Source of the DNA: Chitinophaga pinensis
GTDB taxonomy: Bacteria; Bacteroidota; Bacteroidia; NS11-12g; UBA9320
Direction of reading: 5' to 3'
Assembly (NCBI GenBank): GCA_945889315.1
Contig: CAMDBP010000001.1
Location: forward strand, 45,005-109,004
Length of the DNA stretch: 64,000 nt
Part shown: one piece after another, positions 5,926 through 64,000 of the stretch
How the letters are laid out: the number at the start of each line of letters is the position of its first letter
Position numbering within the stretch: position 1 is the first letter of the stretch
Translations under genes and position numbers: made by a program
The notes under the pieces: generated by a model
Databases searched by the model: none
Told to the model about the DNA's origin: nothing
The model's input: only the letters and a program-made list of their open reading frames with translations

Positions 5926-5929
5926 AAAT

Positions 5930-7063: not shown

Positions 7064-7101
7064 GCAATCCACTACTTTTCGTAGCGTCTTAACTTTCAAA
7101 T

Positions 7102-7785: not shown

Positions 7786-7789
7786 GTCA

Positions 7790-10535: not shown

Positions 10536-10583
10536 TGGTATTCGAATGAACTAAATTGAGATTCTCATGTTTGTAAAGTTGTA

Positions 10584-10856: not shown

Positions 10857-10903
10857 TATTACGGTTAATTCCATCCCCATCTCACTGGGCAACGGTATAA
10901 AGT

Positions 10904-11137
10904 CTATTTATTACGCAACAAACCGAACAATGCGACTATCGCCCAAAACACATTCACGACTAAAAAAGGGTATGCATTAAGGTGATATGCATTTAATGCT
11001 AAAAGCAATGCGCTACCAACGTTTATCCAAATATAGGATTTCGTAGTCGTGCTCATTTTTCCAGTTGAGTTTAAAAAAAATGCCGTGAGTAAACCAATAG
11101 CTCCTACCCAACCGATGAGTTGATTAACTAATCCCAT
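10904..11137 (-). CDS. CBU_0592-like small membrane protein
   Basis: 77 aa, two TM helices. Pattern 'GWVGAIGLLTAFFLNSTGKM...NVGSALLLALNAYHLNAYPFLVVNVFWAIVALFGL' is typical of the family. Confidence 0.5.
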   Translation of the reverse strand: MGLVNQLIGWVGAIGLLTAFFLNSTGKMSTTTKSYIWINVGSALLLALNAYHLNAYPFLVVNVFWAIVALFGLLRNK

Positions 11138-16592: not shown

Positions 16593-16758
16593 AACGTAAA
16601 AGCCATCGATAAATTATGGTCTAACTCTATGTCTTATTCCTTTTAGAAATAGCATCCAACCTGTACACAGTTTAGCATTTTCACCAGCACTCGTATATTG
16701 CACCATTTTTTAGGTTCATCTTTAAGTGAGAGTTAATAATCAACAAGGATATAAATTA

Positions 16759-19581
16759 ATGTTTAGTATTTCGGTACATCCTCAATTAGGTGTGCTAATA
16801 CATCCCTATGTTGTTGCTTTATCTATCCACCAAACACTTACACTTACCTATCAAAAAGTATTTTCGGGTAACGCCGCACATTACCATAAATTAACTGCCG
16901 AAGACTTAAAACTAATCGCTAGTCTTGACGATTTGATGGAAGAATCTGTTGTACGTAAGTTTTCACCTGAAAAAAAAATACGCCCTAAAGAATATTTCAA
17001 AAAGTATCACACTGAATTATTGCAAGCCGATGTAATTAGGCCATGGTTAGAAAAACAAATTGCAAATTTTCTAGCCATTTTACCATTGAATGCAGACCAT
17101 CTTTATGTGGCTGACGAAATAAACCCCGCAGCATTCCCGATAGAAATCAACCGAGATTTCACTAAAGTTCTTTTCCATTTTCATAAGACCGAACTAGGTA
17201 CGAACTATTTTGTAACCCTTAAGCATAATGAAGAGCGTATTCCGTTTATGAAAATTGGAGGCCTAATGCTCACTAAAAAACCAGCTAGAATGGTCGTTAA
17301 CGGTCAACTTTACCGGTTTTACGACTTTGTAGATGGGGCAAAACTGGCGGTATTCCTGAATAAAAAACTGGTCTTTATCCCTAAAACCAGTGAAAAAAAA
17401 TATTACACTAACTTTATAAAACCGTTACTTGAAACTTCACCTGTTTTTACTAAAGGTTTTGAAATTATTACGTTAAAAGAAGAGGCTAAACCCAAGCTCT
17501 CATTAGCCTTAAAAAATGGAAAATACGGCTTTAATGTAATGATTGACTATGGCGGCCTGAGTTTCCCTTTTCACCAAGACAAACTCTTCCACGTAAAACT
17601 AGAATGGAACAGAGATCAGCCCATATTTACCAAATATAAACGATCTCAAATATGGGAAGCCAATAGAATAAATGCCCTCAGTGAACTTGGCCTTACCTTA
17701 GTTTCAGGCTCATTTTTTAGTTTAATAGCTAAAGACTTACAATCATGCATTGACTGGATCAGAACCCATAACGAAGTGCTGGCAGCTAGCCATTTTGATG
17801 TATCGTCTACGATTGATGAAAAATACTGTATTTCACCCTATCAACTTCATTATAACATAGCAGATAAAATTGATTGGTTTGATCTAAACGCGCAAATTAT
17901 CATTGGCGAGGAGACCATCCCTTTTAGCCAGGTTGTAAATGAAATACGAAAAGGTAACGATCGAATAATACTGCCAAACCATGAAGTTTTTCTATTCCCA
18001 AAAGAATGGTTCGCGCTAGGTGAAGCATTAGCTGGGCAAAGCACTAAGAGCAATACCTACAGTATAAAAAAATACCAAGTCGATATTTTGGGACTCATAC
18101 AGTCCAAAGAAATCAAACAACATCTTACCAAGCTGGTTGCCATACAAGCTGAAAAACCTCATTCTAACTTTGTAGGCACTTTAAGAAACTACCAACTAGA
18201 TGGTCTAAGTTGGCTGATGTTTTTAAAAAACAACAACTTTGGAGGTGTATTGGCAGATGACATGGGCTTAGGAAAAACAGTGCAAACCATTTCATTCATG
18301 CAACGTGTGAAGTACGATATGTTAAAAAGTTCTGAGAGAAAAGCTAAGTTTCTACTTGTTGCTCCGACCTCATTACTTTATAACTGGGTGTATGAATGTA
18401 AGCAATTTAGTCCTGACCTCTCAACCGTAATTCACTCGGGCACCAAAAGAGCTAAATCGCCAGTTGAATTAGAAAAGTACGACGTAGTCATCACTACATA
18501 TGGGCTCATTCGAAATGACGAGTCTCTTTTTACGCAACTGCATTATGACGTGCTTGTTTTAGATGAAAGTCAAAATATAAAAAATCACACCGCAAAAACG
18601 ACTCAAAGTATAGCTAAACTAAATGCTGCATGTAAGATAGCGCTTACTGGCACGCCAATAGAAAATAGTATACGCGATTTATGGAGCCAGATGAATGTGC
18701 TTAACAAAGGATTATTAGGCACTTTAAAGCAATTTGAAACCCGATACGCTAAGCCCATTGAAAAAGAGGGAGATGAAGTAAAAGCAGAAGAACTTAGAAA
18801 AATCATAAAACCATTCTTACTCAGGAGAACAAAGGAAGAAGTGGCCAAAGAACTTCCTCGTCTCACCGAAAAAATCATCTATTGCGACATGACAGAAGAG
18901 CAAGCGGAGTATTATGAAACCATCAAATCTGAATACCGAAATAATATACTCGACCTAGTAGATCTGAAAGGATTTGAAAAGTCAAAATTCTCGATCTTAC
19001 AAGGATTATCAAAACTACGTCAATTGGCAAATCACCCGTCATTAATAGACGAACAATATACTGCTAAGAGCGGTAAACATGATATTTTACTTGAAAAAAT
19101 CGCGTCAGCAATTTCTGATGGGCATAAGCTCTTGGTGTTTTCTCAATTTGTGAGATACTTAGAAATTATTGAAAAAGAATTACAACGATTGGGGCTATCT
19201 TATTATAAACTTACAGGTGCAACAAGTAAGGAAAATAGAGCAAAACGGGTAAAGGAATTCCAAACTCAACTAAATCCTGCTGTTTTTCTTATTTCACTAA
19301 AAGCGGGAGGAACTGGCTTGAATCTTACCTCTGCCGATTATGTATTTATAGTGGACCCGTGGTGGAACCCTGCTTCAGAAGCCCAAGCAAGAGATAGAAC
19401 ACATCGAATAGGACAAAAAAACAGTGTATTCAGTTACAAGTTTATCTCGAGAGATACTATTGAAGAGAAAATATCCTTGCTACAGCAAAAAAAACAAGGT
19501 TTCTCAAAAAACATTATCGTGTCAGAAAACAATGTTTTAGCTAATCTTGACATGAATGAGATACAATATTTATTGAGCTGA
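16759..19581 (+). CDS. SNF2-family helicase/ATPase with a long N-terminal SNF2-associated region
   Basis: C-terminal half has SNF2_N and Helicase_C motifs: Walker A 'ADDMGLGKTVQT', DEAH-like 'LVLDESQNIKN', motif VI 'QARDRTHRIGQKNSV'. The N-terminal ~450 aa lack known catalytic motifs. The track ORF starts at GTG 16726; the first ATG is 16759. Confidence 0.8.
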   Translation: MFSISVHPQLGVLIHPYVVALSIHQTLTLTYQKVFSGNAAHYHKLTAEDLKLIASLDDLMEESVVRKFSPEKKIRPKEYFKKYHTELLQADVIRPWLEKQIANFLAILPLNADHLYVADEINPAAFPIEINRDFTKVLFHFHKTELGTNYFVTLKHNEERIPFMKIGGLMLTKKPARMVVNGQLYRFYDFVDGAKLAVFLNKKLVFIPKTSEKKYYTNFIKPLLETSPVFTKGFEIITLKEEAKPKLSLALKNGKYGFNVMIDYGGLSFPFHQDKLFHVKLEWNRDQPIFTKYKRSQIWEANRINALSELGLTLVSGSFFSLIAKDLQSCIDWIRTHNEVLAASHFDVSSTIDEKYCISPYQLHYNIADKIDWFDLNAQIIIGEETIPFSQVVNEIRKGNDRIILPNHEVFLFPKEWFALGEALAGQSTKSNTYSIKKYQVDILGLIQSKEIKQHLTKLVAIQAEKPHSNFVGTLRNYQLDGLSWLMFLKNNNFGGVLADDMGLGKTVQTISFMQRVKYDMLKSSERKAKFLLVAPTSLLYNWVYECKQFSPDLSTVIHSGTKRAKSPVELEKYDVVITTYGLIRNDESLFTQLHYDVLVLDESQNIKNHTAKTTQSIAKLNAACKIALTGTPIENSIRDLWSQMNVLNKGLLGTLKQFETRYAKPIEKEGDEVKAEELRKIIKPFLLRRTKEEVAKELPRLTEKIIYCDMTEEQAEYYETIKSEYRNNILDLVDLKGFEKSKFSILQGLSKLRQLANHPSLIDEQYTAKSGKHDILLEKIASAISDGHKLLVFSQFVRYLEIIEKELQRLGLSYYKLTGATSKENRAKRVKEFQTQLNPAVFLISLKAGGTGLNLTSADYVFIVDPWWNPASEAQARDRTHRIGQKNSVFSYKFISRDTIEEKISLLQQKKQGFSKNIIVSENNVLANLDMNEIQYLLS

Positions 19582-19625: not shown

Positions 19626-20363
19626 ATGAAAAAAACCTTTACAATTCTCTTAAGTATTATTTCAACTATGTCTATTGCGCAACTAGACTGGGCCGTTAAA
19701 AGCATAGACAAACCTGTAGATTTATACACCAATGATGACGGAACGACGGAAGTTGTTGCGCAAGTAACATTAGAAAATCTGGGTGAAACCATCCCTGCAG
19801 GCGATACGTTCACCATTGCTTTAGCCATTTTTAGAGGAGGGGATGGAGCTCTTTTAGTTGCTTCACCAAACTATACTCTTTTAAACCCAAGTGAATCTGT
19901 AAAAGGAAGCATATTAACTACAGCAGAAATTAGCTTTAAAATTAATGCAGGGATTACAGGTTCAGTTGATATGCCTATTTTTATGGGTGCATTGAGTTAT
20001 CATAGAAATAGAACTAGTCCAAAAGAAGACATCGATTCTAACAACAATTTTCTTTTGAAGGAGATGAAATGGAAATCTATTGGCAAATTATCATTGAATA
20101 CGGTTGCTTTTGAAAACAATATTTCGGCATACCCTAACCCTGCAAATGCTACCATAAACGTTGCCTTAAATTATGTACAGCAGGGAGCTACTACTATTGA
20201 ACTTATAAACTTAAATGGACAAGTAGTAGTAAGCCAAAATGCGACCGATATGTTCAATACCAGCAATTCAATGGATGTTTCAAATCTGGAGAAAGGACTT
20301 TACATCTTAACAATAACGAATGGAGATGCTACGTATACTCGAAAAGTTAGTGTTACTCACTAA
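19626..20363 (+). CDS. T9SS type-A sorting-domain protein (secreted, function unknown)
   Basis: Signal peptide. C-terminal ~80 aa 'AYPNPANATINVALNY...IELINLNGQVVVSQN...LEKGLYILTITNGDATYTRKVSV' matches the Por-secretion C-terminal domain. Confidence 0.75.
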   Translation: MKKTFTILLSIISTMSIAQLDWAVKSIDKPVDLYTNDDGTTEVVAQVTLENLGETIPAGDTFTIALAIFRGGDGALLVASPNYTLLNPSESVKGSILTTAEISFKINAGITGSVDMPIFMGALSYHRNRTSPKEDIDSNNNFLLKEMKWKSIGKLSLNTVAFENNISAYPNPANATINVALNYVQQGATTIELINLNGQVVVSQNATDMFNTSNSMDVSNLEKGLYILTITNGDATYTRKVSVTH

Positions 20364-50517: not shown

Positions 50518-52404
50518 ATGAACTACTTAAACGGCGAAAACCTGAGCAAAGACCTTGGCGAGCGCATACTCTTCAAAGACCTAGATATCAGTATTAATAA
50601 AGGTGATAAAATAGCGCTAGTTGCCAATAACGGCACAGGTAAAAGTTCGTTACTGAAAATATTGGCTCACGCTGAGCAACCCGATAATGGGATAGTACGA
50701 TTGAGAAAAGGACTGCGGTCTGCCTACTTACCTCAAGAACCTATTTTTGACGAAGGAACAATTCAAAACCTCATAGACCATAGCAGTTCGCATATAATGG
50801 CAACCATACGGGCGTATGAGGCTTCTCTAGAAGCACAAACTGAAGATTACAATACAGAAACCCAAAGAGCCTTTGAGCACGCTTCTGCGGCTATGGATGA
50901 GGCCGATGCGTGGGATTTTGAGCGGAAACTAAAAGAACTGCTTACCCGTTTTACTATTACCAACTATGACCAGCAAATAAGTTCGCTAAGTGGCGGACAA
51001 AAAAAACGACTCGCCATCAGTTTGGCCATACTCCAAAATCCCGATTTACTGCTACTTGATGAGCCTACCAATCACCTAGACTTGGACATGATAGAATGGC
51101 TAGAGAAATACTTGAGCAATTCTAACATGAGTATCTTAATGGTAAGTCACGACCGCTACTTTCTAGACTCGGTGTGCAACCAAATCGTAGAAATGGTAGA
51201 CGGCAGATTGCAATATTATACAGGCAATTACGCTTATTACTTAGAGAAAAAAGCCGAAATGGAAGCTGCAAATGCTTCTGAAATAGGAAAGGCTCAACAG
51301 CTCATGAATAAAGAGTTGGAATGGATGCGCAGAAGCCCAAAGGCGCGAACTACTAAATCTAAATCGCGAATTTCGGCTTATTACGAAACCGAAGCAAAAG
51401 CCAAAAGCGGCAAAAAGACACAAGACCTAGAACTGGCCGTAAAAATGACACGCATTGGCGGCAAAATACTCGAACTCAAAAAAGTACATAAAAGCTATGG
51501 TGATAATGTCATTTTAAAAGGACTGGACTACACCTTTAAAAAAGGAGAACGTATTGGCATAGTAGGTAAAAATGGCTGTGGCAAGTCTACTTTCCTGAAT
51601 ATGATAATGGACTTAGAACAGCCAGATAGTGGGAAGATAAACAGAGGCGATACCATCGTGTTTGGCTATTACAGCCAAGATGGGATGAAGCACCTTAAAC
51701 CTGAAAAAAGGGTTATAGACGTGCTCAAAGATGTAGCCGAGGTAATCACACTTGCAGACGGAGCAACTGTTACCGCAAGCCAAATGTTGAACCTATTCCT
51801 TTTTCCACCGCAAATGCAACATCAGTTTGTAGAGAAACTGAGTGGTGGAGAGAAGAGACGTTTGTATTTACTCACTGTGCTTATGCTAAATCCAAATTTT
51901 CTTATTTTGGATGAGCCTACCAATGATTTAGACATTTTGACGCTCAATAAGTTAGAGGATTTTCTAGCGGATTTTGGAGGTTGTATTTTACTGGTAAGTC
52001 ACGACAGGTATTTCTTAGATCGTATAGTGGAGCATATATTTGTGTTCGAGGGTCAAGGAGAAATAAAAGACTATAACGGCAGCTACACCGAGTACAGATT
52101 AGAACAAGAAGAACAAGCCAAGCAAGATAAGAAAGACGCTAAAGCGGCACCCTTAGTGTTAGAAAAATCCAAGACTGAAGCGCCTAAGCTTAAACTTAGT
52201 TTTAAAGAAAAATACGAATTGGAAACCTTGGAAAAAGAATTGGAAGATTTAGAAACCGAGAAAGAGCAATTAGAATCTCAACTAGCTAATAATCCTTCAG
52301 ATTTTGACATCATCGCTAAAGCAAGCGAACGATTGGGAACAATACTCCAAGAAATCACCACTAAATCTGACCGGTGGCTGATTTTAAGTGAATACGAAAG
52401 CTAG
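50518..52404 (+). CDS. ABC-F family ATPase (tandem ABC domains, no TMD; EttA/Uup/YheS class)
   Basis: Two Walker A (GANGTGKSSL; GKNGCGKST). Two signatures (LSGGQKKRL; LSGGEKRRL). Two Walker B (LLLDEPTNHLD; LILDEPTNDLD). C-terminal coiled-coil. Confidence 0.9.
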   Translation: MNYLNGENLSKDLGERILFKDLDISINKGDKIALVANNGTGKSSLLKILAHAEQPDNGIVRLRKGLRSAYLPQEPIFDEGTIQNLIDHSSSHIMATIRAYEASLEAQTEDYNTETQRAFEHASAAMDEADAWDFERKLKELLTRFTITNYDQQISSLSGGQKKRLAISLAILQNPDLLLLDEPTNHLDLDMIEWLEKYLSNSNMSILMVSHDRYFLDSVCNQIVEMVDGRLQYYTGNYAYYLEKKAEMEAANASEIGKAQQLMNKELEWMRRSPKARTTKSKSRISAYYETEAKAKSGKKTQDLELAVKMTRIGGKILELKKVHKSYGDNVILKGLDYTFKKGERIGIVGKNGCGKSTFLNMIMDLEQPDSGKINRGDTIVFGYYSQDGMKHLKPEKRVIDVLKDVAEVITLADGATVTASQMLNLFLFPPQMQHQFVEKLSGGEKRRLYLLTVLMLNPNFLILDEPTNDLDILTLNKLEDFLADFGGCILLVSHDRYFLDRIVEHIFVFEGQGEIKDYNGSYTEYRLEQEEQAKQDKKDAKAAPLVLEKSKTEAPKLKLSFKEKYELETLEKELEDLETEKEQLESQLANNPSDFDIIAKASERLGTILQEITTKSDRWLILSEYES

Positions 52405-52448: not shown

Positions 52449-52487
52449 GAAGCTTAGTCCTTTCTAAGCTTACGTCTTTTTCTGATA
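52449..52487 (+). terminator. Probable terminator after the ABC-F gene
   Basis: GAAGCTTAG-tccttt-CTAAGCTTAC then GTCTTTTTCTG: 8-9-bp stem, T-run offset by 3 nt. Confidence 0.5.
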
Positions 52488-52520: not shown

Positions 52521-55334
52521 TTATAATTTAAAGCTAACGCCGAATAGTATTTGTCTAGGAGCGGTATAACGAGCAGGATTGTTAGGAGGTGTCCCGCTTT
52601 CCTCTGGTCCAAGGTAGCGATCATCTCGCTGGTTATTAGGCAAATCGTCTCCTGGTTCCCAAGCTCTGCCTGTCACGGGATTAATAACCTGCGCATTTTT
52701 ATAGTTAAATAAATTTCTTGCTTCCACACTCAGTGTAACCCCTTTACCCTTTCCTTGTGCAAATGTCTTTGTGACTTTAATATCACTGTTTATCCATGGC
52801 GTAGCTCGTTCAGCTAAATAATTATTCAGATCTGAAACATACAGCGGTCTACCTAAATCATTATATCCTTCTAAAAGCATTGGTGTATATCTAAATCCAC
52901 TCTGGTACGATGAGCTAAAGTAGATTTGCGTTCCTTTCATCCATTTTCGATAGATGCTTAAATTAGTATCTGGGGCAAAGACCACCCCAAGATTAATATT
53001 CCAAGGTCTGTCCCAAGCCAAGTACTGCTCTGTGCTTAACGGTACTTCCCCATTTTGCTCTATTTGCAAACTGCTTTCTCTCGCACTGTTACTTTTACCT
53101 TTGGCGAGCTGATAGGCAACGTTGGTAAACGTTCGCAAGTAGGACGTCATTCGCCAGATAACATTAGCCTCGGCACCTTGCACTTTCGCATAATCCTGGT
53201 TAATGTACATGGTCTTGCTTACTGGTCTTCCCGTTTGATCCGTTACAATAACCTTGCGGCTTACGATGTAGTCAAAACGATTGTTATTATAGGCTGATAA
53301 TGTTAGGCCTAAATTTTTCTTAATCTGAGATTTAAAGCCTATTTCGTATGCTACATTTACCTCTGGATTTAAGTCTGGATTACCCAAAAACGAAAGAAAA
53401 CTTCTATCCTGATACTCTGGATCTAGGCCTGCATATACAAAACGAGGATGCGGTAAACGCATACTATGGCTATAGTTAAAGTACAGCACGTTATTATTGG
53501 TTACCGGAAACGACACATTTATTTTAGGCAATATTCTAGCCTTATAACGAAGTCCAAATACCTTCACTGTATGGCTTTTGTAGTCTTCCCTTACTTGATT
53601 GATAACAGGTGCAGTTGGATTATTAACCGCATCATCCGCAAACTTACCCGGCGCCCAATAATTGAAACGCGCTCCTAAATTGGCGATTATCCCTTTGTAT
53701 AGTATTTTATCACTAAAAAATAGACCTCCATTATTTGGTTTTACACGCCAAATGTCATTACTAGAACCAATGCTAATACTCGGAGTACTTATACTATCAT
53801 TGATTTGTATAGGTGCCCCAACCCAAGGTCTTGTCACATCTACCCACTGATATTCATTGAGCTTATGCTCCCAACCGAAATTCATCTGATGGGTTTTATC
53901 CTTTGGATAATATTTAAAACTCGTTTTAATAGTGTGCTCACTGGCAAAGTGATCGTGCCACGTAGAACTTATACCGCCGTTATTTATTAAACCTGGACCA
54001 GGCAGTACATATTGAATAAAGCCATTGGGGTTAAAAACTTGCACTGGATTCGTTACTATGCTTTGCTCGTCATACACTTGGTCTACTGAATTAGTTCTAA
54101 AAGGTCTTCCGTTGGCATCTGCTCTCAGGTTGGTAAAAAGTCGACCCAAGGTAAGTGTACCGACTAATTTTTCGTTGATGGTGCGTCTTATATTTATAGC
54201 AGTAATATTAGAGGAATGGGTGTAGGTAGTAGCGTTATCTAAATTTAAACTTCTATCAAACTGATAACCTGGTGCTAGAATCGCATCAAATCCCACAATT
54301 TGGAGTGACCGAGTACTTTGATTTACGGTTAAACTGTGTTGGTTGGTTATCGATATTTTCGTTTTTTGATTAAGCTCGTGCGAGAGTTTTAAGGTGTGTG
54401 TAAATTGATTGGATTGTCTTGGCGCCCAAAAACTATCGTTTTCCGTTAGTAATGAACTATGCAACTGCTTTGCAGTAGGACCAAAATAATCGTCGGTAAG
54501 ATTTAGGGTAACATTATTGAAGAAATAAAATTTTCTCTTCTTCACTTTAATTTTACCGCCGAATGAAAATTCGCCTATATCTGTATTCCAACCCGAATTT
54601 GCACTTCCTCCAAGATTATCTCTTTGCCAACTTCCCGCAACTTGAAATTCATCTGAACCTTCTTTGATAGATGTACTAATAACACCAGCTGTACCACCAT
54701 CGTGCTCTGCTCCTGCGCCACCTGTAATCAACTCTAATTCACCTATTGAACCACTGGATACTTGTACCCCGAAGCCAGTACCGGCCAGAGGATCTTGTGC
54801 GCTTATGTTATCTATATTAAAAGAAGTTTCATACACACGAGCTCCTCTAATTTGGATACCATCTGGAGATTTAGATACACCTGCTTGAATCGCAACCACC
54901 TCTTGAACGTCTCGCACATTCATCTCTTCGATGTCTTTTTTGTTTAACGTTATGGTGCTTTTTGCATCATCTAATTCAACAACTTTTTTCTTCCCTACTA
55001 TTTTAACGGTTTCAAAGGAATTGGTTTGCGCCGTCATTTTCACATTGAGTAGCGTTGATTTATCCGCTTGAATCTCTATATCATTATAGATTTTTTGCTG
55101 GTACCCCATAAATGAAATATTTATAGTGTACGACCCTGGTTTTATGCTGGCAATTTTAAAAGATCCATCTGCTTCTGATATGGTTGCTCCATAAGTACCT
55201 ACTATTCTTACATAAGCACCTACCAGCTTTTCACCGCTTTCTTGATCGGTAAGAACCCCTTTAAGCGTGCCGTTTTGAGCAATGCTAAACAGTGTAACTA
55301 ATATGCCTAGTATACTACCAGTTAAACGCTTCAT
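52521..55334 (-). CDS. TonB-dependent outer-membrane receptor with N-terminal carboxypeptidase-regulatory-like (CarbopepD_reg) domain
   Basis: 'GTLKGVLTDQESGEKLVGAYVRIVGTYGATISEADGSFKI...GSYTINISFMGY' is the CarbopepD_reg domain. Plug domain (VKIVGKK...ITLNKKDIEEM...VQEVVAIQAGV). Then a ~600-aa barrel. Confidence 0.8.
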   Translation of the reverse strand: MKRLTGSILGILVTLFSIAQNGTLKGVLTDQESGEKLVGAYVRIVGTYGATISEADGSFKIASIKPGSYTINISFMGYQQKIYNDIEIQADKSTLLNVKMTAQTNSFETVKIVGKKKVVELDDAKSTITLNKKDIEEMNVRDVQEVVAIQAGVSKSPDGIQIRGARVYETSFNIDNISAQDPLAGTGFGVQVSSGSIGELELITGGAGAEHDGGTAGVISTSIKEGSDEFQVAGSWQRDNLGGSANSGWNTDIGEFSFGGKIKVKKRKFYFFNNVTLNLTDDYFGPTAKQLHSSLLTENDSFWAPRQSNQFTHTLKLSHELNQKTKISITNQHSLTVNQSTRSLQIVGFDAILAPGYQFDRSLNLDNATTYTHSSNITAINIRRTINEKLVGTLTLGRLFTNLRADANGRPFRTNSVDQVYDEQSIVTNPVQVFNPNGFIQYVLPGPGLINNGGISSTWHDHFASEHTIKTSFKYYPKDKTHQMNFGWEHKLNEYQWVDVTRPWVGAPIQINDSISTPSISIGSSNDIWRVKPNNGGLFFSDKILYKGIIANLGARFNYWAPGKFADDAVNNPTAPVINQVREDYKSHTVKVFGLRYKARILPKINVSFPVTNNNVLYFNYSHSMRLPHPRFVYAGLDPEYQDRSFLSFLGNPDLNPEVNVAYEIGFKSQIKKNLGLTLSAYNNNRFDYIVSRKVIVTDQTGRPVSKTMYINQDYAKVQGAEANVIWRMTSYLRTFTNVAYQLAKGKSNSARESSLQIEQNGEVPLSTEQYLAWDRPWNINLGVVFAPDTNLSIYRKWMKGTQIYFSSSYQSGFRYTPMLLEGYNDLGRPLYVSDLNNYLAERATPWINSDIKVTKTFAQGKGKGVTLSVEARNLFNYKNAQVINPVTGRAWEPGDDLPNNQRDDRYLGPEESGTPPNNPARYTAPRQILFGVSFKL

Positions 55335-56772
55335 TTAGTATTTTAGAGATTAATTGATTTTGGTTAATACTATTTTTATTAAGCTTATGCAGTTCAACAG
55401 AAAAGAGCACTAAATTCACTTGATTTTTATTATTTCTTCTTCTAATAGCAATGCACCTTGGACCACTCCAGCCACCGCTAGGTGTAAGTTGAGCAGTGTA
55501 AAACACTTCTGCATTTACTCCTGGGTAAAAAGGATCTGCAGCGAGTAGAAAATTAGCAGGTTGTACCACAGGGTATCCGGCATCTTTACTTATCGCAGCA
55601 CTGTCGTTGGTAAAAAAAGCTTGACCTCTAGCCGAGCTAAAACTATCAATTGATAGCACATCTCCAATTATGCTTAAATCGGCTCCGTTAGAGAACGACG
55701 AGGAAACCAGTACTTTTTTATTATTGTCAATTAGTTGTTGAATGACAGGTGCCGCAAAATCCAATAAAGTGCCATCAAGACCAGAGAAAGGATTACTTGT
55801 CGTGCCTTCTTCGGTATGAAAGAAAATTTTATCGTATTCCATTGCAAGAAGTCGGAAGGTAGGATCCCAAAACTTAGGTTGGTATTTGCCGCCATCTCGA
55901 GCATAATCTACTACGTCTAGATTTTTATAATTGGTTGTAATAAGGGCATTGTATATAGCAGACAGACTTTGATTGTGTCCACCTACTGCCAGTAAATCAC
56001 TTGTTTTAGATCTGGTGTAAATATTTATGGTACTATCTACTTTACTTTCTGAATTAGCAATGTCGGATACTTTAAGTTGGATTATATTATTCCCCCCATT
56101 TACAAAACCATCAATAATAATCCTGGCATTTTTTTCAATTCCGTAATACAGTTTCGCATTGCCTTTGCCTAAAGCAGAGGTGTTTTCTGCGATGAGTGAA
56201 ATTAATTTTTGATTGAGATCAATCTCAGACCACGCTCCGTCATTGGCGCGTATAAAGCCTTTTTTTAGCGTAGCATCTCCATCTGGATCACTGGCACGGT
56301 AGCGAAAAGATATAACTAGATTTGTAGTGTCCTCAGTTACACTTGCTTTGTCAAATGACACTACAGGAGGACTATTTTTAAGTGGCACTTTTATGAAAGC
56401 AGGAGTCGGATCAGCAACGTTTTCATCGTCCACCGCTCTCACGTAAAACTCAATATCTGTTGAGTCTGCGTCTGGATTAATATCAAATAAAAATGTACTA
56501 TCTTGTGATTGAGTTTTAAACCACTCACCTTCATTTATTTTGATTTCGTAATGCTGAACGTAGCCATCTACATCTGTACCAAACCATGTGAGGTTAACTG
56601 TGCTATTTAGCCGTTTGTCTCCAGAAAGGTTTATGTTTTCTACAGATAATTTAGTTTCGGGAGCCATGTTTGGCAACTCCTCTCCCGTTTTACAGGAAAA
56701 AGTAAAAACAAGAAGACCGAGCACGAAAGTGCTCAGTCCTTTTGTTGAATAAGATAAGATACTATTTATCAT
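55315..56772 (-). CDS. Hypothetical lipoprotein (485 aa) in the T9SS-cargo / TonB-receptor operon
   Basis: Lipobox LVFTFSC. No recognizable catalytic motifs. 1-nt TAATG overlap with the upstream gene and 20-nt overlap with the TonB receptor start. Confidence 0.5.
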   Translation of the reverse strand: MINSILSYSTKGLSTFVLGLLVFTFSCKTGEELPNMAPETKLSVENINLSGDKRLNSTVNLTWFGTDVDGYVQHYEIKINEGEWFKTQSQDSTFLFDINPDADSTDIEFYVRAVDDENVADPTPAFIKVPLKNSPPVVSFDKASVTEDTTNLVISFRYRASDPDGDATLKKGFIRANDGAWSEIDLNQKLISLIAENTSALGKGNAKLYYGIEKNARIIIDGFVNGGNNIIQLKVSDIANSESKVDSTINIYTRSKTSDLLAVGGHNQSLSAIYNALITTNYKNLDVVDYARDGGKYQPKFWDPTFRLLAMEYDKIFFHTEEGTTSNPFSGLDGTLLDFAAPVIQQLIDNNKKVLVSSSFSNGADLSIIGDVLSIDSFSSARGQAFFTNDSAAISKDAGYPVVQPANFLLAADPFYPGVNAEVFYTAQLTPSGGWSGPRCIAIRRRNNKNQVNLVLFSVELHKLNKNSINQNQLISKILNEAFNW

Positions 56773-58985
56773 TAAATTTTCACAAACTTAGCAGAAGCTC
56801 TCTGCCCAGTTGCGTTGGTATATTCTAGGAAATAAACACCACATAATAATGAACTTATATTCACAGAGGTGCTCCCAAGTATTTCAGTTTGACTCACTAA
56901 TCTTCCTTCAAGACTGCGTATTGCAAGTGTGCCATGACCATTGTTTCCTATCTGAATAGTTAACACATTATTCGCAGGATTTGGGTAAAAAGAAACACCT
57001 AAATCGGTAAGTTCTACAACGCTATTTTTAGCGGTATCGCTCGCATATTTTGCAGGTGCTAATGTTTGGCTAAAACCTATGATATCGTTGTTATTTCTTG
57101 GCTTAAGTGCAAATTGGCTGAATCCATAATAAATCACTCCAACCATAGCGTCCATATCCATGTCTTTGGTAGCTTCCACTGCTGCTACTTCCATGATACC
57201 ATCTATGTTAGCAAAAGTATCGTTAGACACTAAAGACACCCAAAGTGAAGAATTATTGTTGCTGTTTTTTACACCGGATTGAACCTTAGTACTATTGGCA
57301 AAATTAGCTGCAGTATCATTAGAGATCATGAACTCACCAAATGGATTTAAACGTGGGTTAGCTATTTTTACTTTACCTCCTGCATTAACCATTTTTACCA
57401 GCATAGATTCGTATTTTTCCATTCCTCCATTTGCTCTTCCTGTACTATCGCTTACGGGTAATTCTAAAGGTGCTACGTCAAATGTTTTACCTGTTTTGGA
57501 TACTGAAGTTACTTCTAGTTGGGTGTTTCCGAAGGATTCTACCACTTTACCAGTTACCTGAACCTCTTCGGTTCTCCACAAGTCTAACAAGTCAGCGTTA
57601 CCTGTTAATTTTATCCCTGCAAACTCTGTTGCGTCTTTATCTTGAATATAAATATCTTCTAGGTCGTAAGGCTTAGCGCTGGCGATAACATAGCCTTTTA
57701 CGGTAACTGTTTGATCTTTATACGGACTCGCATCTTGAAGCGGGTTTAATACTTTTTGAAGGTCAACAATACTTAAGCCATTATCTCTAACGGTATAAAA
57801 AGAGGTTGAACCCGATGCTTTTGCTGCACTAAAAGGTTCGTAGCTTTTATTACCATCGTTATCATCGGCAGTGATGTAGTATCTAACTATTGTACCATCT
57901 GCAAAAGCTGGAATTGTCGCTTGAAATTCATCTGTTGAACCGGACTTTAATGTCATCGATACTGAAGTAAAAGCAGTATTATCCTGATTTAAGTTTGTTG
58001 AGTAAAATAATTTTTGGTCTACTACAGTACCATTAAAATCAACAATTTTAGCTGTAAGCGTTACCACATTACCGCTAGCAGGAACCAATGGACTTCTGCT
58101 TACTTGTGTAATACTTGGAGGTGTATCTCCTACTTTGTAATGACTAGCCAAAAATGGATTTAATTCATACCCTCTACCTGTTCCACCTGAACAACCATTT
58201 TGTGAATGAAGTACAATTCCTGACAAAGACTCGTATTTAGTACCTACAACCGGCGGTACAAATTGTCCTTTAGACTGAGGAGAGGAAACATTTAGTGCAG
58301 TCCAACTTGCTTGTTTTTGAGCAATAAATCTATCCGAAACGTTAATTAAATTGCCGTTAACATCACTCACATCAAAACTAACTCTATTGCCACTAAATAT
58401 AGAAACCGCAACAACGGTTACGTTTTCAAAGGTCACTAAAGAACCTTCATATTCTTCTCCCGTAGTGTATACATTACTTCTTGAGTTATCATTTAGTATG
58501 CCCAAGTTGATCACTTTTGGTGTAGGGGCTGAGGTTGTTCCTATAACCGTTACCGATGAGTTATCTTTAGGATAGATTTGTGTTTCACCGCTAAAGTTAT
58601 TTACCGTTCCTACGATTTCTACAATCATACCTGCAACTAGATTATTAAGCGCTGTTACGGGTTGAGTGAGTTGTCCTGAGTATACCCCGTGAATCTGAAT
58701 TCCTGCAAAATTTCCCATTACGCCGCCAGCAGCGGTATCCATAATGTGAACACCAGGTCTATATCCACCTGTTACTGATCCAGAAGCCAACTCCGTAAGA
58801 CCCCCATCGTGCATCACTACACCAACAGTTTTAACTACTTGGTTGTTATACGCACTTAAATCTTTACAACTTGCTAAGTCACTAGGACTTACATACTGTA
58901 TATCGTGCACCGATAAAGCCGTTTGAGCAGACGCAAATAGGATACTGAATATTCCCAATGCTAGTGTTAGAACTTGTTTTTTCAT
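56772..58985 (-). CDS. T9SS type-A sorting-domain protein (737 aa), function unknown
   Basis: Signal peptide. N-terminal 'SVHDIQYVSPSDL' region. C-terminus 'SFYPNPANNVLTIQIGNNGHGTLAIRSLEGRLVSQTEI...LCGVYFLEYTNATGQRASAKFVKI' is the type-A CTD. Confidence 0.7.
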   Translation of the reverse strand: MKKQVLTLALGIFSILFASAQTALSVHDIQYVSPSDLASCKDLSAYNNQVVKTVGVVMHDGGLTELASGSVTGGYRPGVHIMDTAAGGVMGNFAGIQIHGVYSGQLTQPVTALNNLVAGMIVEIVGTVNNFSGETQIYPKDNSSVTVIGTTSAPTPKVINLGILNDNSRSNVYTTGEEYEGSLVTFENVTVVAVSIFSGNRVSFDVSDVNGNLINVSDRFIAQKQASWTALNVSSPQSKGQFVPPVVGTKYESLSGIVLHSQNGCSGGTGRGYELNPFLASHYKVGDTPPSITQVSRSPLVPASGNVVTLTAKIVDFNGTVVDQKLFYSTNLNQDNTAFTSVSMTLKSGSTDEFQATIPAFADGTIVRYYITADDNDGNKSYEPFSAAKASGSTSFYTVRDNGLSIVDLQKVLNPLQDASPYKDQTVTVKGYVIASAKPYDLEDIYIQDKDATEFAGIKLTGNADLLDLWRTEEVQVTGKVVESFGNTQLEVTSVSKTGKTFDVAPLELPVSDSTGRANGGMEKYESMLVKMVNAGGKVKIANPRLNPFGEFMISNDTAANFANSTKVQSGVKNSNNNSSLWVSLVSNDTFANIDGIMEVAAVEATKDMDMDAMVGVIYYGFSQFALKPRNNNDIIGFSQTLAPAKYASDTAKNSVVELTDLGVSFYPNPANNVLTIQIGNNGHGTLAIRSLEGRLVSQTEILGSTSVNISSLLCGVYFLEYTNATGQRASAKFVKI

Positions 58986-59004
58986 TTTATTCTTTTTTAA
59001 TTCT

Positions 59005-61128
59005 TTATTTTATTATGGCAAATTTGCTTTTGTACAACTTGCCTGTGTCTAAATCTTTTACGGTAAAGATATATAACCCTCGGGCTATAATTTGTGTGTT
59101 CTCTGTAAGCAAGTCCCATGCATGCTCTCCTCCTGCAAATACATTTTGGTCTGCATTCTCAGCTCCAAAAGTTTGATTCCAGCGGATATCGCTGCCATCG
59201 TATTGAGCATTGTGTGTTATCTTATCTAAAAAATCTCCTGCCGCTGTGTAAACATATATTTCACAATTAGCGGGTAGATTAGCAAAGTATAACTTACGAC
59301 TTTGTTCTTGAAATGAACTTTTACCTTCCCAACTTGCTCCTGCTATGTAGGGGTTGGGATATGCATATGGTTCATTCATACTTAAGTTCTTATTAGCTGG
59401 CTTCCCAGCGTAGGCTCTATAATTATTCGCAAGCGGACTACTTTCTAAACTCTCTAAGTTACTTGCCGCGTTTCCTCTATCAAAAGCGGTTACCGATATC
59501 GCGTATTGCCAACCGTTTAACACATTATTAATGGTGTATTTATACCAATATTCGGTATCATCTCCTTCAAACTTAAAAGGCTGATCTAGTCTTACTGCAC
59601 CAAATCCTGTTTCGTAATCGTAGCCATTAGCAGCAATATCATATTCCGCTATTTTCACCAAGTCGCGTTGTAAGTTAGGAACAGTGCTTACATCAAAACC
59701 TAACTTAGTCATATATACTCTGTACCCTTCAAAATCCATGGTTTGACTTATAGGGTCAATACTAGATTCTGCATTCTGTGACCAATAAATCTCTATTTTA
59801 TTTTCGGACGTTACTACCTTAGTTTCTGGAATCTCTGGTGGAGCGGGAAGTATGAAGCGCGTAAGTTTTCCATTGCCGTCTAAATCTTCACCAGCATCTA
59901 AAAGCCCATTTGCATTAATATCTTCACCATTATAAGCGGTTTGCGCCCAAGAAGCATTGCCCAAGAAAATACTTTGTTGTTGTAAATTATTGGCACTATT
60001 GGGATTGCCATCTTGTTTCTTTCTGCCAAAAATGAAGGCATAACTAACCTTTATCTTTTCTCCAGGTTTGAAATCTCTAAATGGACCAACGGAAACTAAA
60101 TCTGAACGATTACCTGCTTCGTTCAACTGCTGCTGATAACTTTTAGTTCCGCAACTTGAATTAGTAGTGTTATTCTGATCCCAACAGGGGTGCTGGTTTA
60201 ATCCTCGGGTTAATTTTTGATACCGAGTGTTATCGTTGGTAGGTTGGAAGTATATAGGATCTGTGGTACTATTAAACTGCCAAGCGTTGTAATTAGCCTT
60301 AAATGAAGCTGCAGTAGAAGGATGATGAAAGCCATTTTTATCTTCTGCACCTAAAAATTTTTGTCCCACATAGCTATCGGTAAAACCAACATCCCCCGCA
60401 TTATCGTAACAGTAGGCCATTTGTAAGCTATCCAAATAACCATTACCCCCTTTATTATAGAAAGAGGCACCGCCACTTCCCGCAGGAGTAATATTGATGT
60501 TTCGAACAACGGTATTAGACCATAGACCAAAAAAAGCACTGTCTATGGTGTTCGTACCGATATTTTCTAGTTCATAATCTAAAATAACAAAAAAATCACT
60601 GAAGCTGTAATTCCAATTATATGACTTTGCGGTTATTTGAACAAAAAGAGGATCGAGATGTGCTCCTATTTGAGTGTTCGTACCTGGCACTTTTACATTT
60701 TTATCAGAAAATGAGGCTACAAAATCTTGGTGAGAAACCGCGGATGTATTGTAATAGGGACTATTTCGAAGTGATGAGATTTCTTTAAGTGTAGCTCCTT
60801 GTTCCGGATAAAACTCAAATCCGGCAGAACCCGTACTGTATCCTTGGGGAGCATCTACTGCTGCCGTGCTAACTGCCACGGTAGATCCATTTATTAATCC
60901 GCCAAACCAAATGCCACTTTCAAAAAGATGTTCTACGCCACTTCCTGCGGGATATTCGCCAGAAGGGTTACCCGAACCATCGCGATAACCTCGAAATGCA
61001 TTGCCAAACGTACCTGAGTTGGACACATTTAGACGTACATTGGAGGCAGTGGTAGTTTTCTCACTAAAGGTTTGCGCAGATACACAAAATGAAAACAAGA
61101 GGGAAACTATAAAAGCACTTAACTTCAT
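59005..61128 (-). CDS. T9SS C-terminal sorting-domain protein (707 aa) with a Ca-binding-like Asp/Gly loop, function unknown
   Basis: Signal peptide. 'DINANGLLDAGEDLDGNGKLT' (EF-hand/dockerin-like loop). C-terminus 'YAYPNPYIAG...CEIYVYTAAGDFLDKI...GLYIFTVKDLDTGKLYKSKFAIIK' resembles the type-A CTD. Confidence 0.6.
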   Translation of the reverse strand: MKLSAFIVSLLFSFCVSAQTFSEKTTTASNVRLNVSNSGTFGNAFRGYRDGSGNPSGEYPAGSGVEHLFESGIWFGGLINGSTVAVSTAAVDAPQGYSTGSAGFEFYPEQGATLKEISSLRNSPYYNTSAVSHQDFVASFSDKNVKVPGTNTQIGAHLDPLFVQITAKSYNWNYSFSDFFVILDYELENIGTNTIDSAFFGLWSNTVVRNINITPAGSGGASFYNKGGNGYLDSLQMAYCYDNAGDVGFTDSYVGQKFLGAEDKNGFHHPSTAASFKANYNAWQFNSTTDPIYFQPTNDNTRYQKLTRGLNQHPCWDQNNTTNSSCGTKSYQQQLNEAGNRSDLVSVGPFRDFKPGEKIKVSYAFIFGRKKQDGNPNSANNLQQQSIFLGNASWAQTAYNGEDINANGLLDAGEDLDGNGKLTRFILPAPPEIPETKVVTSENKIEIYWSQNAESSIDPISQTMDFEGYRVYMTKLGFDVSTVPNLQRDLVKIAEYDIAANGYDYETGFGAVRLDQPFKFEGDDTEYWYKYTINNVLNGWQYAISVTAFDRGNAASNLESLESSPLANNYRAYAGKPANKNLSMNEPYAYPNPYIAGASWEGKSSFQEQSRKLYFANLPANCEIYVYTAAGDFLDKITHNAQYDGSDIRWNQTFGAENADQNVFAGGEHAWDLLTENTQIIARGLYIFTVKDLDTGKLYKSKFAIIK

Positions 61129-61181
61129 GTATTAAAGTTGCAAATATAAGAGGTGAACTGTAGTCTCGTGTAACCCTATCA

Positions 61182-61862
61182 TTAAACTTTAGGCTTGGGT
61201 TTTGTCACAAAAACTGATTTAATATAATTGGGCTCATAATACGCCACACTCTCTAGCTCACCCGCTTCCCACTTTTTAAGGGCTTCAGGAAGTAAATCTC
61301 GAGCATAAATACCTGTAAGTGAATTAATTAAAATGTTTTCAGGATTAAATTCTTGAACCCATTTTAAAGCTCCAGATCCACAAGCAATTGTCTCTCCATG
61401 GGTATAATCAAACGCTAGTTGAGCATCTATTGTGATAAACTGCTCATCAGCAATAGAATTTAGTTTTTTATCAAATACGCCCAAATAGGCATCCATTCTA
61501 CGTGCATCTATCAATGAGATAAAACGATCCGCTTTAGGAAATTCTAATTGAGCTGAAGCTGCAAAAGCGGCTAATGTAGAGCATGCAATAAGTGGTAAAT
61601 CTGACCCGAAACAAAGGCCTTTGGCCAAACTGCACCCAATACGCAATCCGGTATAAGAACCAGGGCCTCCACCAATAACAATTGCATCGAGTTCAGTTAT
61701 TTTTATCCCACTTTCTTTTAAAACCTCACTTACAAATTGTGCTAAATAAATAGAATGTGAGTTGGGTTCTTGAATAGATTTTTCAGCCATAATCTGATTG
61801 CCATTAGACACCGCAGCTGAGCAAATATCCCCAGAAGATTCTATCAAAATAAATTTAGGCAC
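61182..61862 (-). CDS. tsaB: tRNA threonylcarbamoyladenosine biosynthesis protein TsaB (YeaZ)
   Basis: 'ILIESSGDICSAAV', 'ELDAIVIGGGPGSYTGLRIGCSLAKGL', 'LIDARRMDAYLG'. About 225 aa, the inactive Kae1/TsaD paralog. Confidence 0.85.
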   Translation of the reverse strand: MPKFILIESSGDICSAAVSNGNQIMAEKSIQEPNSHSIYLAQFVSEVLKESGIKITELDAIVIGGGPGSYTGLRIGCSLAKGLCFGSDLPLIACSTLAAFAASAQLEFPKADRFISLIDARRMDAYLGVFDKKLNSIADEQFITIDAQLAFDYTHGETIACGSGALKWVQEFNPENILINSLTGIYARDLLPEALKKWEAGELESVAYYEPNYIKSVFVTKPKPKV

Positions 61863-62655: not shown

Positions 62656-64000
62656 CATGACCAAAACCAACTATCCAGCGCTGTATACGCTAATTACCGT
62701 ATTTTTCTTTTGGGGCTTTATTGCTGCAGGAAATAGCATATTTATTCCCTTTTGTAAATCGTACTTCTCGTTGGACCAATTTCAGTCGCAACTTGTAGAT
62801 TTTGCATTTTACACCGCCTACTATTTAGGTGCTCTTTTACTATTTGCATTCGGGACTTTAGGAGGTACTGACATCGTAGGTAAGTGGGGTTATAAAAAAA
62901 GTATCGTCTACGGATTACTTTTTTCAGCACTTGGCGCCGGGGCTATGATTGTAGCAGTGCAGGCTAATTTATATGCAGGAATGCTGGTAGGGCTATTTAT
63001 TGTAGCATTAGGCTTTTCACTACAACAAACAGCAGCTAATCCGTTTGCCATCTTACTTGGCGACCCAAAAACTGGCGCAAGCCGCGTTAATTTAGGAGGT
63101 GGAATAAATTCTTTGGGAACCACGATTGGCCCAATAGTAGTCGCATTAGCTTTATTTGGTACTGCAGCAAGTATTACGGACGAGCAAATAAAAATGTTAG
63201 AACTTAGCAAGGTTATATACTTATACGTTGGAGTTGGATTATTATTTATTTTAGCGGCTGGACTTTTCTTTTTCTCCAAAAAAGTACCTGATGGTATTAC
63301 AACAGAGCCTGTAGAAAAAGCAAACAAAGCGCTTATCACGTTGACCGTTATGACTGTATTATTGGCCATTATGTTTGTTCCCGTATTTAGCAGTTATAAA
63401 AGCGCTGAAGCTGCGGAAATATTAACCTTAGGGAATGAAATAGTTGAACTTAACGCGGCAAATCTAGAAACCATTAATCTTGATTTAATTTCATCCAAAC
63501 AGACCAAATTGGCAGAAATAAGTGAAGGATTGGAAAACTATAGAATGGCTTGGTTGATAGGCGCTTTACTTACGGTTGTGGGAGGTTTACTATTTTCATA
63601 TACTTCCGCTAAGAAGAAACAAGATGGATGGGGAGCAATGCAATACCCTCAATTGGTGCTTGGGATGCTTGCCATTTTTACGTACGTTGGCGTAGAGGTT
63701 GCCATAGGTTCTAATCTGGGTGAACTCTTAAAATTAGATTCCTTTGGCGGATTACAATCATCGGAGATTGCTCCATATATATCCATGTATTGGGGCAGTT
63801 TAATGATAGGACGCTGGGCAGGAGCCATTAGTGTTTTTAACCTAAGCGGAATTAAAAGAACTATTGCCCTGATTGTTGTTCCAATCGTTGCGTTTGGGCT
63901 TATCCTTGGAGTTAATATACTTTCAGGTAAAGACATGACGCCTCTTTATTACTATGTAGTGTGTGTTTTCTTGCAAATTGGAGCTTTCTTTTTCAGCAAG
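62656..64000 (+). CDS. Partial CDS: L-fucose/glucose-galactose:H+ symporter-type MFS permease (FucP/GluP family); runs off the window end
   Basis: ATG 62656: MTKTNYPALYTLITVFFFWGFIAAGNSIFIPFCKSYFSLDQFQSQLVDFAFYTAYYLGALLLF... This is the classic FucP N-terminus (LFFLWGF...N.IL.P). At least 10 TM segments are visible and there is no stop before 64000. It is absent from the ORF track for that reason. Confidence 0.7.

Follow-up and report, generated by a model that had tools for sequence, protein, structure and literature searches.

Four adjacent minus-strand genes, here called A, B, C and D, in a stretch of 64,000 nucleotides (nt) of Chitinophaga pinensis (assembly GCA_945889315.1, contig CAMDBP010000001.1, positions 45,005 to 109,004; hereafter the window) form one conserved unit. 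They encode two proteins with signal peptides (A and B), a lipoprotein (C) and a TonB-dependent transporter (TBDT; D), and they appear to be a reduced form of a six-gene module, A to F, which is best explained as ancient in the Fibrobacteres-Chlorobi-Bacteroidetes (FCB) superphylum. The most economical reading of the unit is a capture system centred on the TBDT, with partners delivered by the T9SS (type IX secretion system). Tentatively, and with considerable doubt as to the cargo, A to D may be regarded as a system, built around D, that captures extracellular nucleic acid at the cell surface and imports it.

The original prediction, made from the letters of this stretch without database searches, had described four tightly packed genes on one strand. 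Indeed, a six-frame list of open reading frames (ORFs) returned all four with exactly the same coordinates and lengths (Table 1), and direct reading of the junctions confirmed a gap of 19 nt between A and B, an overlap of 1 nt (TAATG) between B and C, and an overlap of 20 nt between C and D. Homologues of A numbered at least 1898, all named 'hypothetical' and 62-95% identical, and a scan with one genome per species revealed relatives of A in 497 genomes. The survey of families and loci made use of the best 80 of these 497 genome matches, all of which belonged to Flavobacteriales outside the Flavobacteriaceae (Crocinitomicaceae, Salibacteraceae, Schleiferiaceae, Vicingaceae and Cryomorphaceae; also Owenweeksia and Phaeocystidibacter luteus). 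Mapping with tblastn and hidden Markov models (HMMs) placed A, B, C and D colinearly on one strand in 67 of 84 Flavobacteriales loci; the remaining 17 loci end at contig ends, and among the 67 informative ones there was no exception to the order. The idea that this gene order occurs in the present strain alone, put forward with the original prediction as a way to overturn it, thus fails decisively. The genes flanking A to D differ from clade to clade. Identity to the window proteins ranged from 57 to 95% for A, from 55 to 98% for D, from 37 to 94% for B and from 33 to 94% for C, A and D being conserved far more than B and C.

Linkage of the four families extends well beyond the Flavobacteriales. 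The A-family profile retrieved 3472 representative clusters at E<=1e-3, with named distant members in Ignavibacteria, Marinimicrobia/Neomarinimicrobiota and Eisenbacteria. HMMs built on families A to D were used to map 80 metagenomic loci around A relatives of about 30% identity, and the four families were still linked there, in the order A-B-C-D-E-F on low-GC contigs and D-E-F-A-C-B on high-GC (0.66-0.71) soil and sediment contigs. The product of the fifth gene, E, is a FadL-like barrel that belongs to the PorV/PorQ family (Pfam PorV, E 1e-11); the copy at L049:18769-19773, L049 being one of the loci compared, matched NCBIfam PorV_fam with 171.6 bits (cut-off 90) and stayed under the equivalog cut-offs of PorQ, PorV and PorV2. 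The sixth gene, F, encodes an NHL-repeat beta-propeller of about 400 residues (NHL, E 5e-16), which is a predicted lipoprotein in every lineage and carries, in Bacteroidota, acidic residues after the Cys (SCEDYFGDKTD…). The succession D-E-F was present in 35 Flavobacteriales loci, including that of Phaeocystidibacter luteus, and both E and F occurred in every distant locus with room beyond D. The 18 loci that lack E and F over at least 2.5 kb beyond D all come from the window's branch of the family. In the window itself, no gene for E adjoins D, no NHL-type ORF was found, and the sole gene of the PorV family is porV2, which was rejected as the missing barrel since it is unlinked and belongs to a different equivalog; in L005, a close relative, an inversion alone has placed it 7 kb from A. 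Clustering of all ORFs of 164 loci revealed no seventh conserved gene, and no nuclease, regulator or TonB/ExbBD.

As this linkage is deep and independent of gene order, the proteins most probably act together around D. The notion that A to D are unrelated neighbours packed by chance could appeal to the frequency of overlapping unrelated genes in compact bacterial genomes, and to a terminator-like hairpin between A-B and C-D. It is nevertheless very improbable and is effectively refuted by synteny, as the linkage is kept in 67 out of 67 informative loci and survives a changed gene order across phyla at about 30% identity. As a separate observation, one low-GC metagenomic locus (L122:14049-16248) carries a DNA methylase (N6_N4_Mtase plus HTH_17) and an ORF of 352 residues without known relatives between B and C, which looks like a mobile or restriction-modification insertion within the module.

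Protein D had been predicted to be a TonB-dependent receptor with a CarboxypepD_reg extension, and CarboxypepD_reg, Plug and barrel were all matched in Pfam (Table 1). A plug was present in 18 out of 18 members of the D family (best E 2.6e-14), and, between extension and plug, residues 107-113 (ETVKIVG) are a candidate TonB box. The top PDB match of the D-family profile was XusA (9gbc_A, E 2e-21), the Bacteroides enterobactin transporter that is partnered by the lipoprotein XusB, followed by Cir, PhuR, PqqU/YncD and PirA; the profile matched the plugs of XusA, Cir and PirA. Against the SusC/RagA model (TIGR04056), D scored 54.2 bits versus a cut-off of 368.25, and its N-terminal extension alone matched. 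D is accordingly best described, as far as homology goes, as a predicted complete TBDT of a non-SusC type. A CarboxypepD_reg extension is carried by the Oar protein of Myxococcus as well. Furthermore, the absence of a SusD-like gene was borne out, as A, B, C and their neighbours gave no SusD-type Pfam or NCBIfam match. The unit resembles SusCD systems and polysaccharide utilisation loci in that a CarboxypepD_reg TBDT and surface accessory proteins are encoded in a co-oriented cluster, with a presumed logic of capture followed by import. It differs from them in that D is not SusC/RagA, that SusD, glycoside hydrolases, a hybrid two-component system and an extracytoplasmic function sigma factor/anti-sigma regulator are absent, and that at least one partner arrives through the T9SS and not as a lipoprotein.

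Among lipoprotein lids, BtuG and XusB are beta-propellers. The module shares with the BtuG, XusB and HmuY systems that lipoproteins (C and, in its full form, F) are encoded next to the TBDT, the extension and plug of D being closest to those of XusA. Yet C and F match none of these lid families by sequence, C consisting of two FN3 domains and an alpha/beta domain and F of NHL repeats; the module adds T9SS cargo and a FadL-family barrel, and the window lacks a propeller. For Bacteroides, Price et al. (bioRxiv 10.1101/2023.03.17.533168) describe BtuG-BtuB, XusB-XusA and HmuY-HmuR as pairs in which a non-SusC TBDT has an alternative lipoprotein lid.

Protein B is the T9SS type-A cargo that it had been taken for, with matches to TIGR04183 (47.5 bits, cut-off 23) and Pfam Por_Secre_tail (E 1.7e-12); a type-A C-terminal domain (CTD) occurred in 25 out of 25 B-family members, and the family profile matched solved CTDs. 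Upstream of this sorting signal, two OB-fold modules enclose an Ig-like domain. B matched the NCBIfam model ExeM_NucH_DNase (NF033681) with E 3.6e-17 over model positions 34-223 of 546, the score being 62 bits versus a cut-off of 300 and matches being confined to model positions ~1-235 of 546. Scanned singly, module 1 (E 4.8e-6) and module 2 (E 1.7e-11) each matched positions ~16-215, and orthologues of B matched the same model with E from 2e-24 to 7e-13. The OB family tRNA_anti-codon was matched by 11 out of 25 B-family members, and the B-family profile weakly matched the OB domain of the exoribonuclease YhaM. In distant B orthologues, which carry two to four OB modules and have C-termini of the FlgD_ig/Por_Secre_tail CTD type, the region aligning to module 2 of B matched DUF5689 with 57 and 67.8 bits (cut-off 28.6), and the LTD cut-off was exceeded too. 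Among the close members of the B family, DUF5689 was found in 1 out of 25 (E 2.8e-4).

In addition, B contained no endonuclease/exonuclease/phosphatase (EEP) catalytic domain: a Pfam EEP match was absent and no module reached the catalytic part of the model. Since an EEP domain is lacking, B is a binding protein at most and not a nuclease. Similarly, searches of Pfam, NCBIfam and the PDB detected no catalytic domain in A, B or C, in agreement with the original prediction. By homology, B would be the LTD/OB front end of a nuclease of the ExeM/NucH/Xds type (LTD plus OB plus EEP) without the nuclease domain, duplicated and provided with a T9SS signal. The likeness to these nucleases consists of the two modules, homologous to the pre-catalytic region, and of the LTD in distant orthologues; unlike them, B lacks the EEP domain and its predicted export is by the T9SS instead of the type II secretion system or GlyGly-CTERM sorting. 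Xds needs its OB domain in order to act as a nuclease (PMC6746945). The ExeM/NucH/DUF5689-type OB modules of B point to nucleic acid as the probable cargo, so that the substrate, which the original prediction had left blank, is no longer without any indication.

For protein A, the original prediction needed correction. It had been described as a second T9SS type-A cargo, and its C-terminus gave no Pfam or NCBIfam CTD match, even when the last 131 residues were scanned in isolation at E<=10. Moreover, a comparison with the CTD family of B by hhalign was not significant (probability 5.9%). With both the Pfam scan and hhalign negative, the assignment of a T9SS CTD to A was dropped, and the resemblance is at the level of motifs alone (YPNPY ... 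GLYIFTV ... KFAIIK). A is unrelated to PorZ, save for one weak C-terminal match of the A orthologue in L049 to the PorZ CTD (E 0.0078). The architecture of A, including a C-terminal domain of the pattern 'PNPY…W…GxY…F', is kept superfamily-wide, and this domain is the best-conserved part of A (72% identity versus 66-68% elsewhere), in contrast to the CTD of B, which is the least conserved part of that protein (34% versus 53-58%). Being the most conserved part of A, its C-terminus is unlike a disposable sorting tag, and by analogy with the CTD of PorZ on PorQ it may be retained and used for docking. Barrels of the FadL family (PorV; BamG) act as platforms that hold surface proteins in Bacteroidota (PMC12578637). 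The E barrel of the full module, encoded beside proteins with CTD-type C-termini, resembles the PorQ-PorZ, PorV-PorU and BamG platforms in this respect; it differs from them in that E lies closer to the model of the whole family than to any of the equivalogs PorQ, PorV and PorV2, and is absent from the window.

The non-canonical, highly conserved C-terminal domain of A, recognised by no T9SS profile, could also fit a system that is not an importer, in which D exports or assembles proteins as Oar does for PopC in Myxococcus, or in which the six proteins form a surface structure, for instance an adhesin or a coat, and E anchors the subunits that bear a CTD. Oar is a precedent of a TBDT required for protein export (PMC6434023), one D-family member matched OMP_b-brl_4, barrels of the PorQ/PorV/BamG type are attachment platforms, and FN3/Ig domains, typical of surface structures, abound in A, B and C. 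This explanation is improbable all the same, given the full plug in every D-family member considered and the fact that the solved relatives of D are importers. The ordinary T9SS signal of B makes D unnecessary for its export, distant proteins sharing the N-domain of A carry canonical T9SS CTDs, and the nuclease-type binding modules of B would be left unexplained.

Besides its C-terminus, A showed little likeness to known proteins. Neither single-sequence nor profile searches retrieved a Pfam, NCBIfam or PDB relative. An AlphaFold2 model of mediocre quality (predicted local distance difference test, pLDDT, 63) began with a beta-sandwich and ended in a seven-stranded sandwich, with an FN3-like domain between the two, and Foldseek returned weak matches (TM ~0.22) to the sandwiches at the N-termini of GH94, GH116 and dextran dextrinase, as well as to FN3 domains. 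The profile and Foldseek checks suggested for the 707- and 485-residue proteins have thus been run, and they produced weak or generic fold matches and no profile relative. The Ca-binding-like loop that had been noted in A is indeed a D/N/G-rich loop that is invariant within A's own family, but it is absent from distant relatives. A role as hydrolase was considered and rejected; as the polar residues conserved in the superfamily (E105, S132, D135, D142, H157 and N189) fit no nameable motif, no catalytic claim is made for A. One distant protein (P0454) combines a BNR/Ycf48-like propeller with an A-type N-domain and a canonical T9SS CTD.

The assignment of protein C as a lipoprotein was supported by a signal peptide and a lipobox (…LLVFTFSC27), of which Cys27 is invariant in 43 homologues; the residues after it are KTGEEL. 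Its AlphaFold2 model was good (pLDDT 87) and displayed two FN3/Ig domains followed by an alpha/beta domain, for which Foldseek returned tandem FN3 matches only. No Pfam, NCBIfam or PDB relative of C was found in single-sequence and profile searches. In three distant loci, a beta-propeller of BNR/Ycf48-like (Sortilin-Vps10-like) type is attached to a C-like protein (L141:12111-14771, L147:14098-16389 and L161:16057-18528).

Starting from the gene structure, the domain homologies and the linkage across phyla, a course of events can be inferred as to surface localisation, complex formation, substrate identity and direction of transport. After export by the T9SS, B would be exposed on the cell surface, where its two OB-fold modules would bind an extracellular polymer, most likely nucleic acid (DNA). 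B would then pass the substrate to D, which would import it, or fragments of it, with TonB energy. C may be an accessory or lid-like subunit, and F, as a surface lipoprotein propeller, probably acts likewise in the full version. A would be a further surface subunit, its CTD-like domain probably being retained and docking to a PorV/PorQ-family barrel or to D, and it may also supply the missing processing activity. Of the non-Sus capture system with T9SS-delivered partners that had originally been proposed, the non-SusC nature of D, B as a T9SS cargo, the lipoprotein C and the absence of SusD are supported, and A as a type-A cargo is not.

Several findings weigh against nucleic acid as the cargo, or against this arrangement. 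The B protein of the window itself gave no DUF5689 match, remaining below threshold, and it lacks the lipoprotein-lid character of DdbD, the counterpart discussed below. With a median pI of 4.28, the B family is acidic, and each OB module has a net negative charge, which is unusual for a DNA binder. A nuclease gene was linked in none of the 164 loci, unlike the situation in the ddb locus. Three hints point towards glycans: A weakly matches the folds of N-terminal domains from glycoside hydrolases and phosphorylases, C is fused to propellers in some distant loci, and a B-like paralogue carries a pullulanase X25 domain, together with a weak CBM56 match. Finally, in the absence of E and F from the window, docking of A has no dedicated partner there.

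The acidity of B, the lack of a linked nuclease and the three hints towards glycans would fit the same architecture with another cargo (for instance a glycan, a polyanion other than nucleic acid, a peptide or a metal complex), the OB folds of B binding an oligosaccharide or other ligand. OB folds do bind ligands other than nucleic acids, and the nearest solved relatives of D import siderophores, haem and pyrroloquinoline quinone. Such a cargo is quite possible, if doubtful. All profiles that recognise the modules of B (ExeM/NucH, DUF5689, tRNA_anti-codon, LTD and, weakly, YhaM) are associated with nucleases or nucleic acids, and no glycoside hydrolase, lyase, peptidase or carbohydrate-binding module was consistently linked in the 164 loci. 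In addition, the sugar-related fold matches of A are of low quality (TM ~0.22), and they were obtained with a model of pLDDT 63.

Literature searches did not retrieve a published description of this gene set, and we could not find descriptions of the T9SS delivery of a partner, the dedicated PorV/PorQ-type barrel, the NHL lipoprotein or the families A and C. Two of the closest known systems concern DNA. In B. thetaiotaomicron, DdbD (DUF5689) is the proposed DNA-binding lid of the TBDT DdbC, encoded in the ddbABCDEF locus for DNA utilisation (PMC12478041). In Riemerella anatipestifer, the DUF5689 protein RA0C_RS04920 and the CarboxypepD_reg outer-membrane protein RA0C_RS04915 are essential for natural transformation (PMC8459023). 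As in these pairs, a non-SusC TBDT-type barrel with CarboxypepD_reg adjoins a protein of the DUF5689/OB type, the likeness of D being one of domain architecture and the resemblance to DUF5689 being met only via the distant orthologues of B, which itself matches the N-terminal region of ExeM/NucH. Unlike DdbD, B combines a type-I signal peptide with a T9SS CTD, in place of the anchor of a lipoprotein lid, and C sits between B and D. Nucleases like those of ddbA, ddbB and ddbF are found neither among A to D nor as a conserved family in the 164 loci, and the present module adds A and C as subunits, to which its ancestral form joined an NHL lipoprotein and a barrel of the PorV/PorQ family.

The Riemerella case raises an alternative in which intact DNA is taken up for natural transformation instead of nutrition, by analogy with RA0C_RS04915 and RA0C_RS04920. 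The lack of a linked nuclease fits intact DNA better than digestion, and the Riemerella-type TBDT has been reported as confined to Flavobacteriaceae, the best 80 of the 497 genome matches obtained here being from other Flavobacteriales families. The competence genes comEC, dprA and comF were, nevertheless, not seen in the linked set, and the deep conservation of six components (A and D are ~60% identical across families) is more like that of a constitutively useful acquisition system, so that a role in transformation carries a low probability.

In the wider setting of the six genes, capture and import of nucleic acid by A to D may be part of something larger. The A-F module could be an ancient, FCB-wide outer-membrane machine, in which T9SS subunits are held on a dedicated PorV/PorQ-type barrel, with A anchored as PorZ is on PorQ, and feed DNA or another polymer to a TBDT without a SusD-like lid. 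In such a machine, A and C would found new families, and the clade of the window would work without barrel and propeller. Taken in all its parts, this picture is speculative and rather unlikely.

Concerning expression, gene A is predicted to have its own promoter, with a Bacteroidetes -7 box upstream of its start codon (Table 1). The motif TAnnTTTG is not enriched window-wide (89 sites versus 82 expected), and the argument for the box therefore rests on its conserved position. Such a box occurred within -80 to -12 of the ATG of A in 41 of 83 related loci, starting in most of them at -14 to -27, whichever gene lay upstream. A scan for sigma-70 promoters performed no better than shuffled sequence (30 sites versus 31.4) and was rejected. 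Near the junction of B and C, a terminator-like stem-loop starts inside gene C. All 10 tested pairs form in each of eight orthologous loci, with three pairs changed on both sides, whereas pairing was 24-32% when the partner columns were slid as a control. In six-gene clades, the B-C spacer holds hairpins of unrelated sequence, followed by T-runs. The hairpin looks like a conserved attenuator that would raise A and B above C and D. The tightly coupled operon of the original prediction is thus retained as far as the packed junctions are concerned; given a conserved, covarying terminator-like hairpin at the B-C junction, the expression levels of A-B and C-D may differ. The hairpin leaves the functional linkage of A to D intact. 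A second hairpin, in the convergent spacer between D and the downstream ABC-F ATPase gene, is a possible end of the transcription unit.

One subclade with six genes (L045, L053-L056, L059, L064, L066, L081 and L082) possesses further elements about 200 nt upstream of A, for example at L055:9801-10003. These are, in order, a conserved palindromic box (AAAAGTTAATAAAGATTTAACATT), a -7-like box (CAATTTTGC) and a leader of about 100 nt with the conserved arms AGUCAAGGCACCUAU … UGAUAAACGGCGGAC, which flank a variable hairpin; 4 out of 6 pairs covary. The leader matched no Rfam family. These elements, which are absent from the window, are candidates for an operator and a cis-regulatory leader.

Table 1. 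Genes, protein domains and regulatory features of the A-D unit and its surroundings (positions in the window).
Feature	Residues	Positions	Strand	Details
Gene A		59005-61128	-	707 aa
A, signal peptide				…VSAQ/T
A, N-terminal beta-sandwich domain	~20-400
A, D/N/G-rich Ca-like loop	401-425	59854-59928	-
A, FN3-like domain	~428-580
A, C-terminal beta-sandwich	585-707	59008-59376	-	conserved
Gene B		56772-58985	-	737 aa
B, signal peptide				…FASAQ/T, read from sequence
B, OB-fold module 1	22-285	58131-58922	-
B, Ig-like domain	286-400
B, OB-fold module 2	401-650	57036-57785	-
B, T9SS type-A CTD	667-733	56787-56987	-
Gene C		55315-56772	-	485 aa
C, lipobox Cys27	27	56692-56694	-
C, two FN3/Ig-like domains	38-250
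C, alpha/beta domain	260-485
Gene D		52521-55334	-	937 aa
D, N-terminal CarboxypepD_reg extension	23-110	55005-55268	-	Pfam, 53 bits
D, plug	124-217	54684-54965	-	Pfam Plug, 26.1 bits (cut-off 23.9)
D, beta-barrel	to 937		-	TonB_dep_Rec_b-barrel, 83 bits (cut-off 27)
-7 box TATATTTG		61141-61148	-	Bacteroidetes TAnnTTTG; predicted promoter of A; motif start -20, last base 12 nt before the ATG of A
Terminator-like stem-loop		56703-56740	-	12 bp (6 GC), then U-run; starts 32 nt inside gene C
Hairpin in D/ABC-F convergent spacer		52450-52471	.	terminator-like site on the + strand
tsaB		61182-61862	-	upstream of A; TIGR03725, 150 bits
ABC-F ATPase gene		50518-52404	+	downstream, converges on D; spacer 116 nt
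porV2		5930-7063	+	'putative type IX sorting system protein'; NF052325, 444.8 bits (cut-off 325)

Upstream of A, at a spacer of 53 nt, lies tsaB, and an ORF of 160 residues on the same strand had no family match in Pfam and NCBIfam scans. The presence of both genes on this strand agrees with what had been reported earlier, but their membership of the unit was rejected, as they adjoin A in the closest clade only, accompanying the cassette where A is at least 74% identical to that of the window.

As to a T9SS context, the window encodes PorV2 and one further type-A cargo; the T9SS core genes gldKLMN and sprA, if present, are located outside these 64 kb. The two ORFs flanking porV2 (5269-5925 and 7102-7785) had no family match. 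Apart from a clear type-A T9SS sorting domain (TIGR04183, 57 bits), no domain was recognised in a protein of 245 residues (19626-20363, plus strand). A Snf2-family helicase of 951 residues is encoded at 16726-19581 (plus strand), with partial matches, all below cut-off, to a pilus-regulating Snf2 protein, ZorD (Zorya) and DrmD (DISARM). Furthermore, an ORF of 153 residues at 62908-63369 (minus strand), without family match and with an odd composition rich in Ala, Pro, Ser and Ile, may be spurious and antisense to a real gene. Locus L005, at about 93% DNA identity, matches the window in two opposite orientations, L005:1-6715 corresponding directly to 4258-10980 and L005:7132-22119 corresponding in reverse to 64000-49010, which implies that the two genomes differ by an inversion of more than 53 kb; one of its breakpoints would lie near 10980.

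Bacteroidota feed through TBDTs with surface partners, and the known partners (SusD, BtuG, XusB, HmuY and DdbD) are lipoproteins, whereas at least one partner is a T9SS cargo here. In the full module, a PorV/PorQ-type barrel is fixed beside the transporter, which would join secretion and uptake in one machine. The module reaches beyond marine Flavobacteriales into Ignavibacteria, Marinimicrobia, Eisenbacteria and high-GC soil bacteria, and two of its proteins, A and C, have neither an annotated family nor a structural relative, A being among the most conserved proteins of the module. Cultured carriers, such as Phaeocystidibacter luteus and Owenweeksia hongkongensis, make direct testing possible. 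If the cargo is DNA, the module would represent a major unrecognised route for the turnover of extracellular DNA, and hence of phosphorus and nitrogen, in oceans and soils, or for the uptake of genes.

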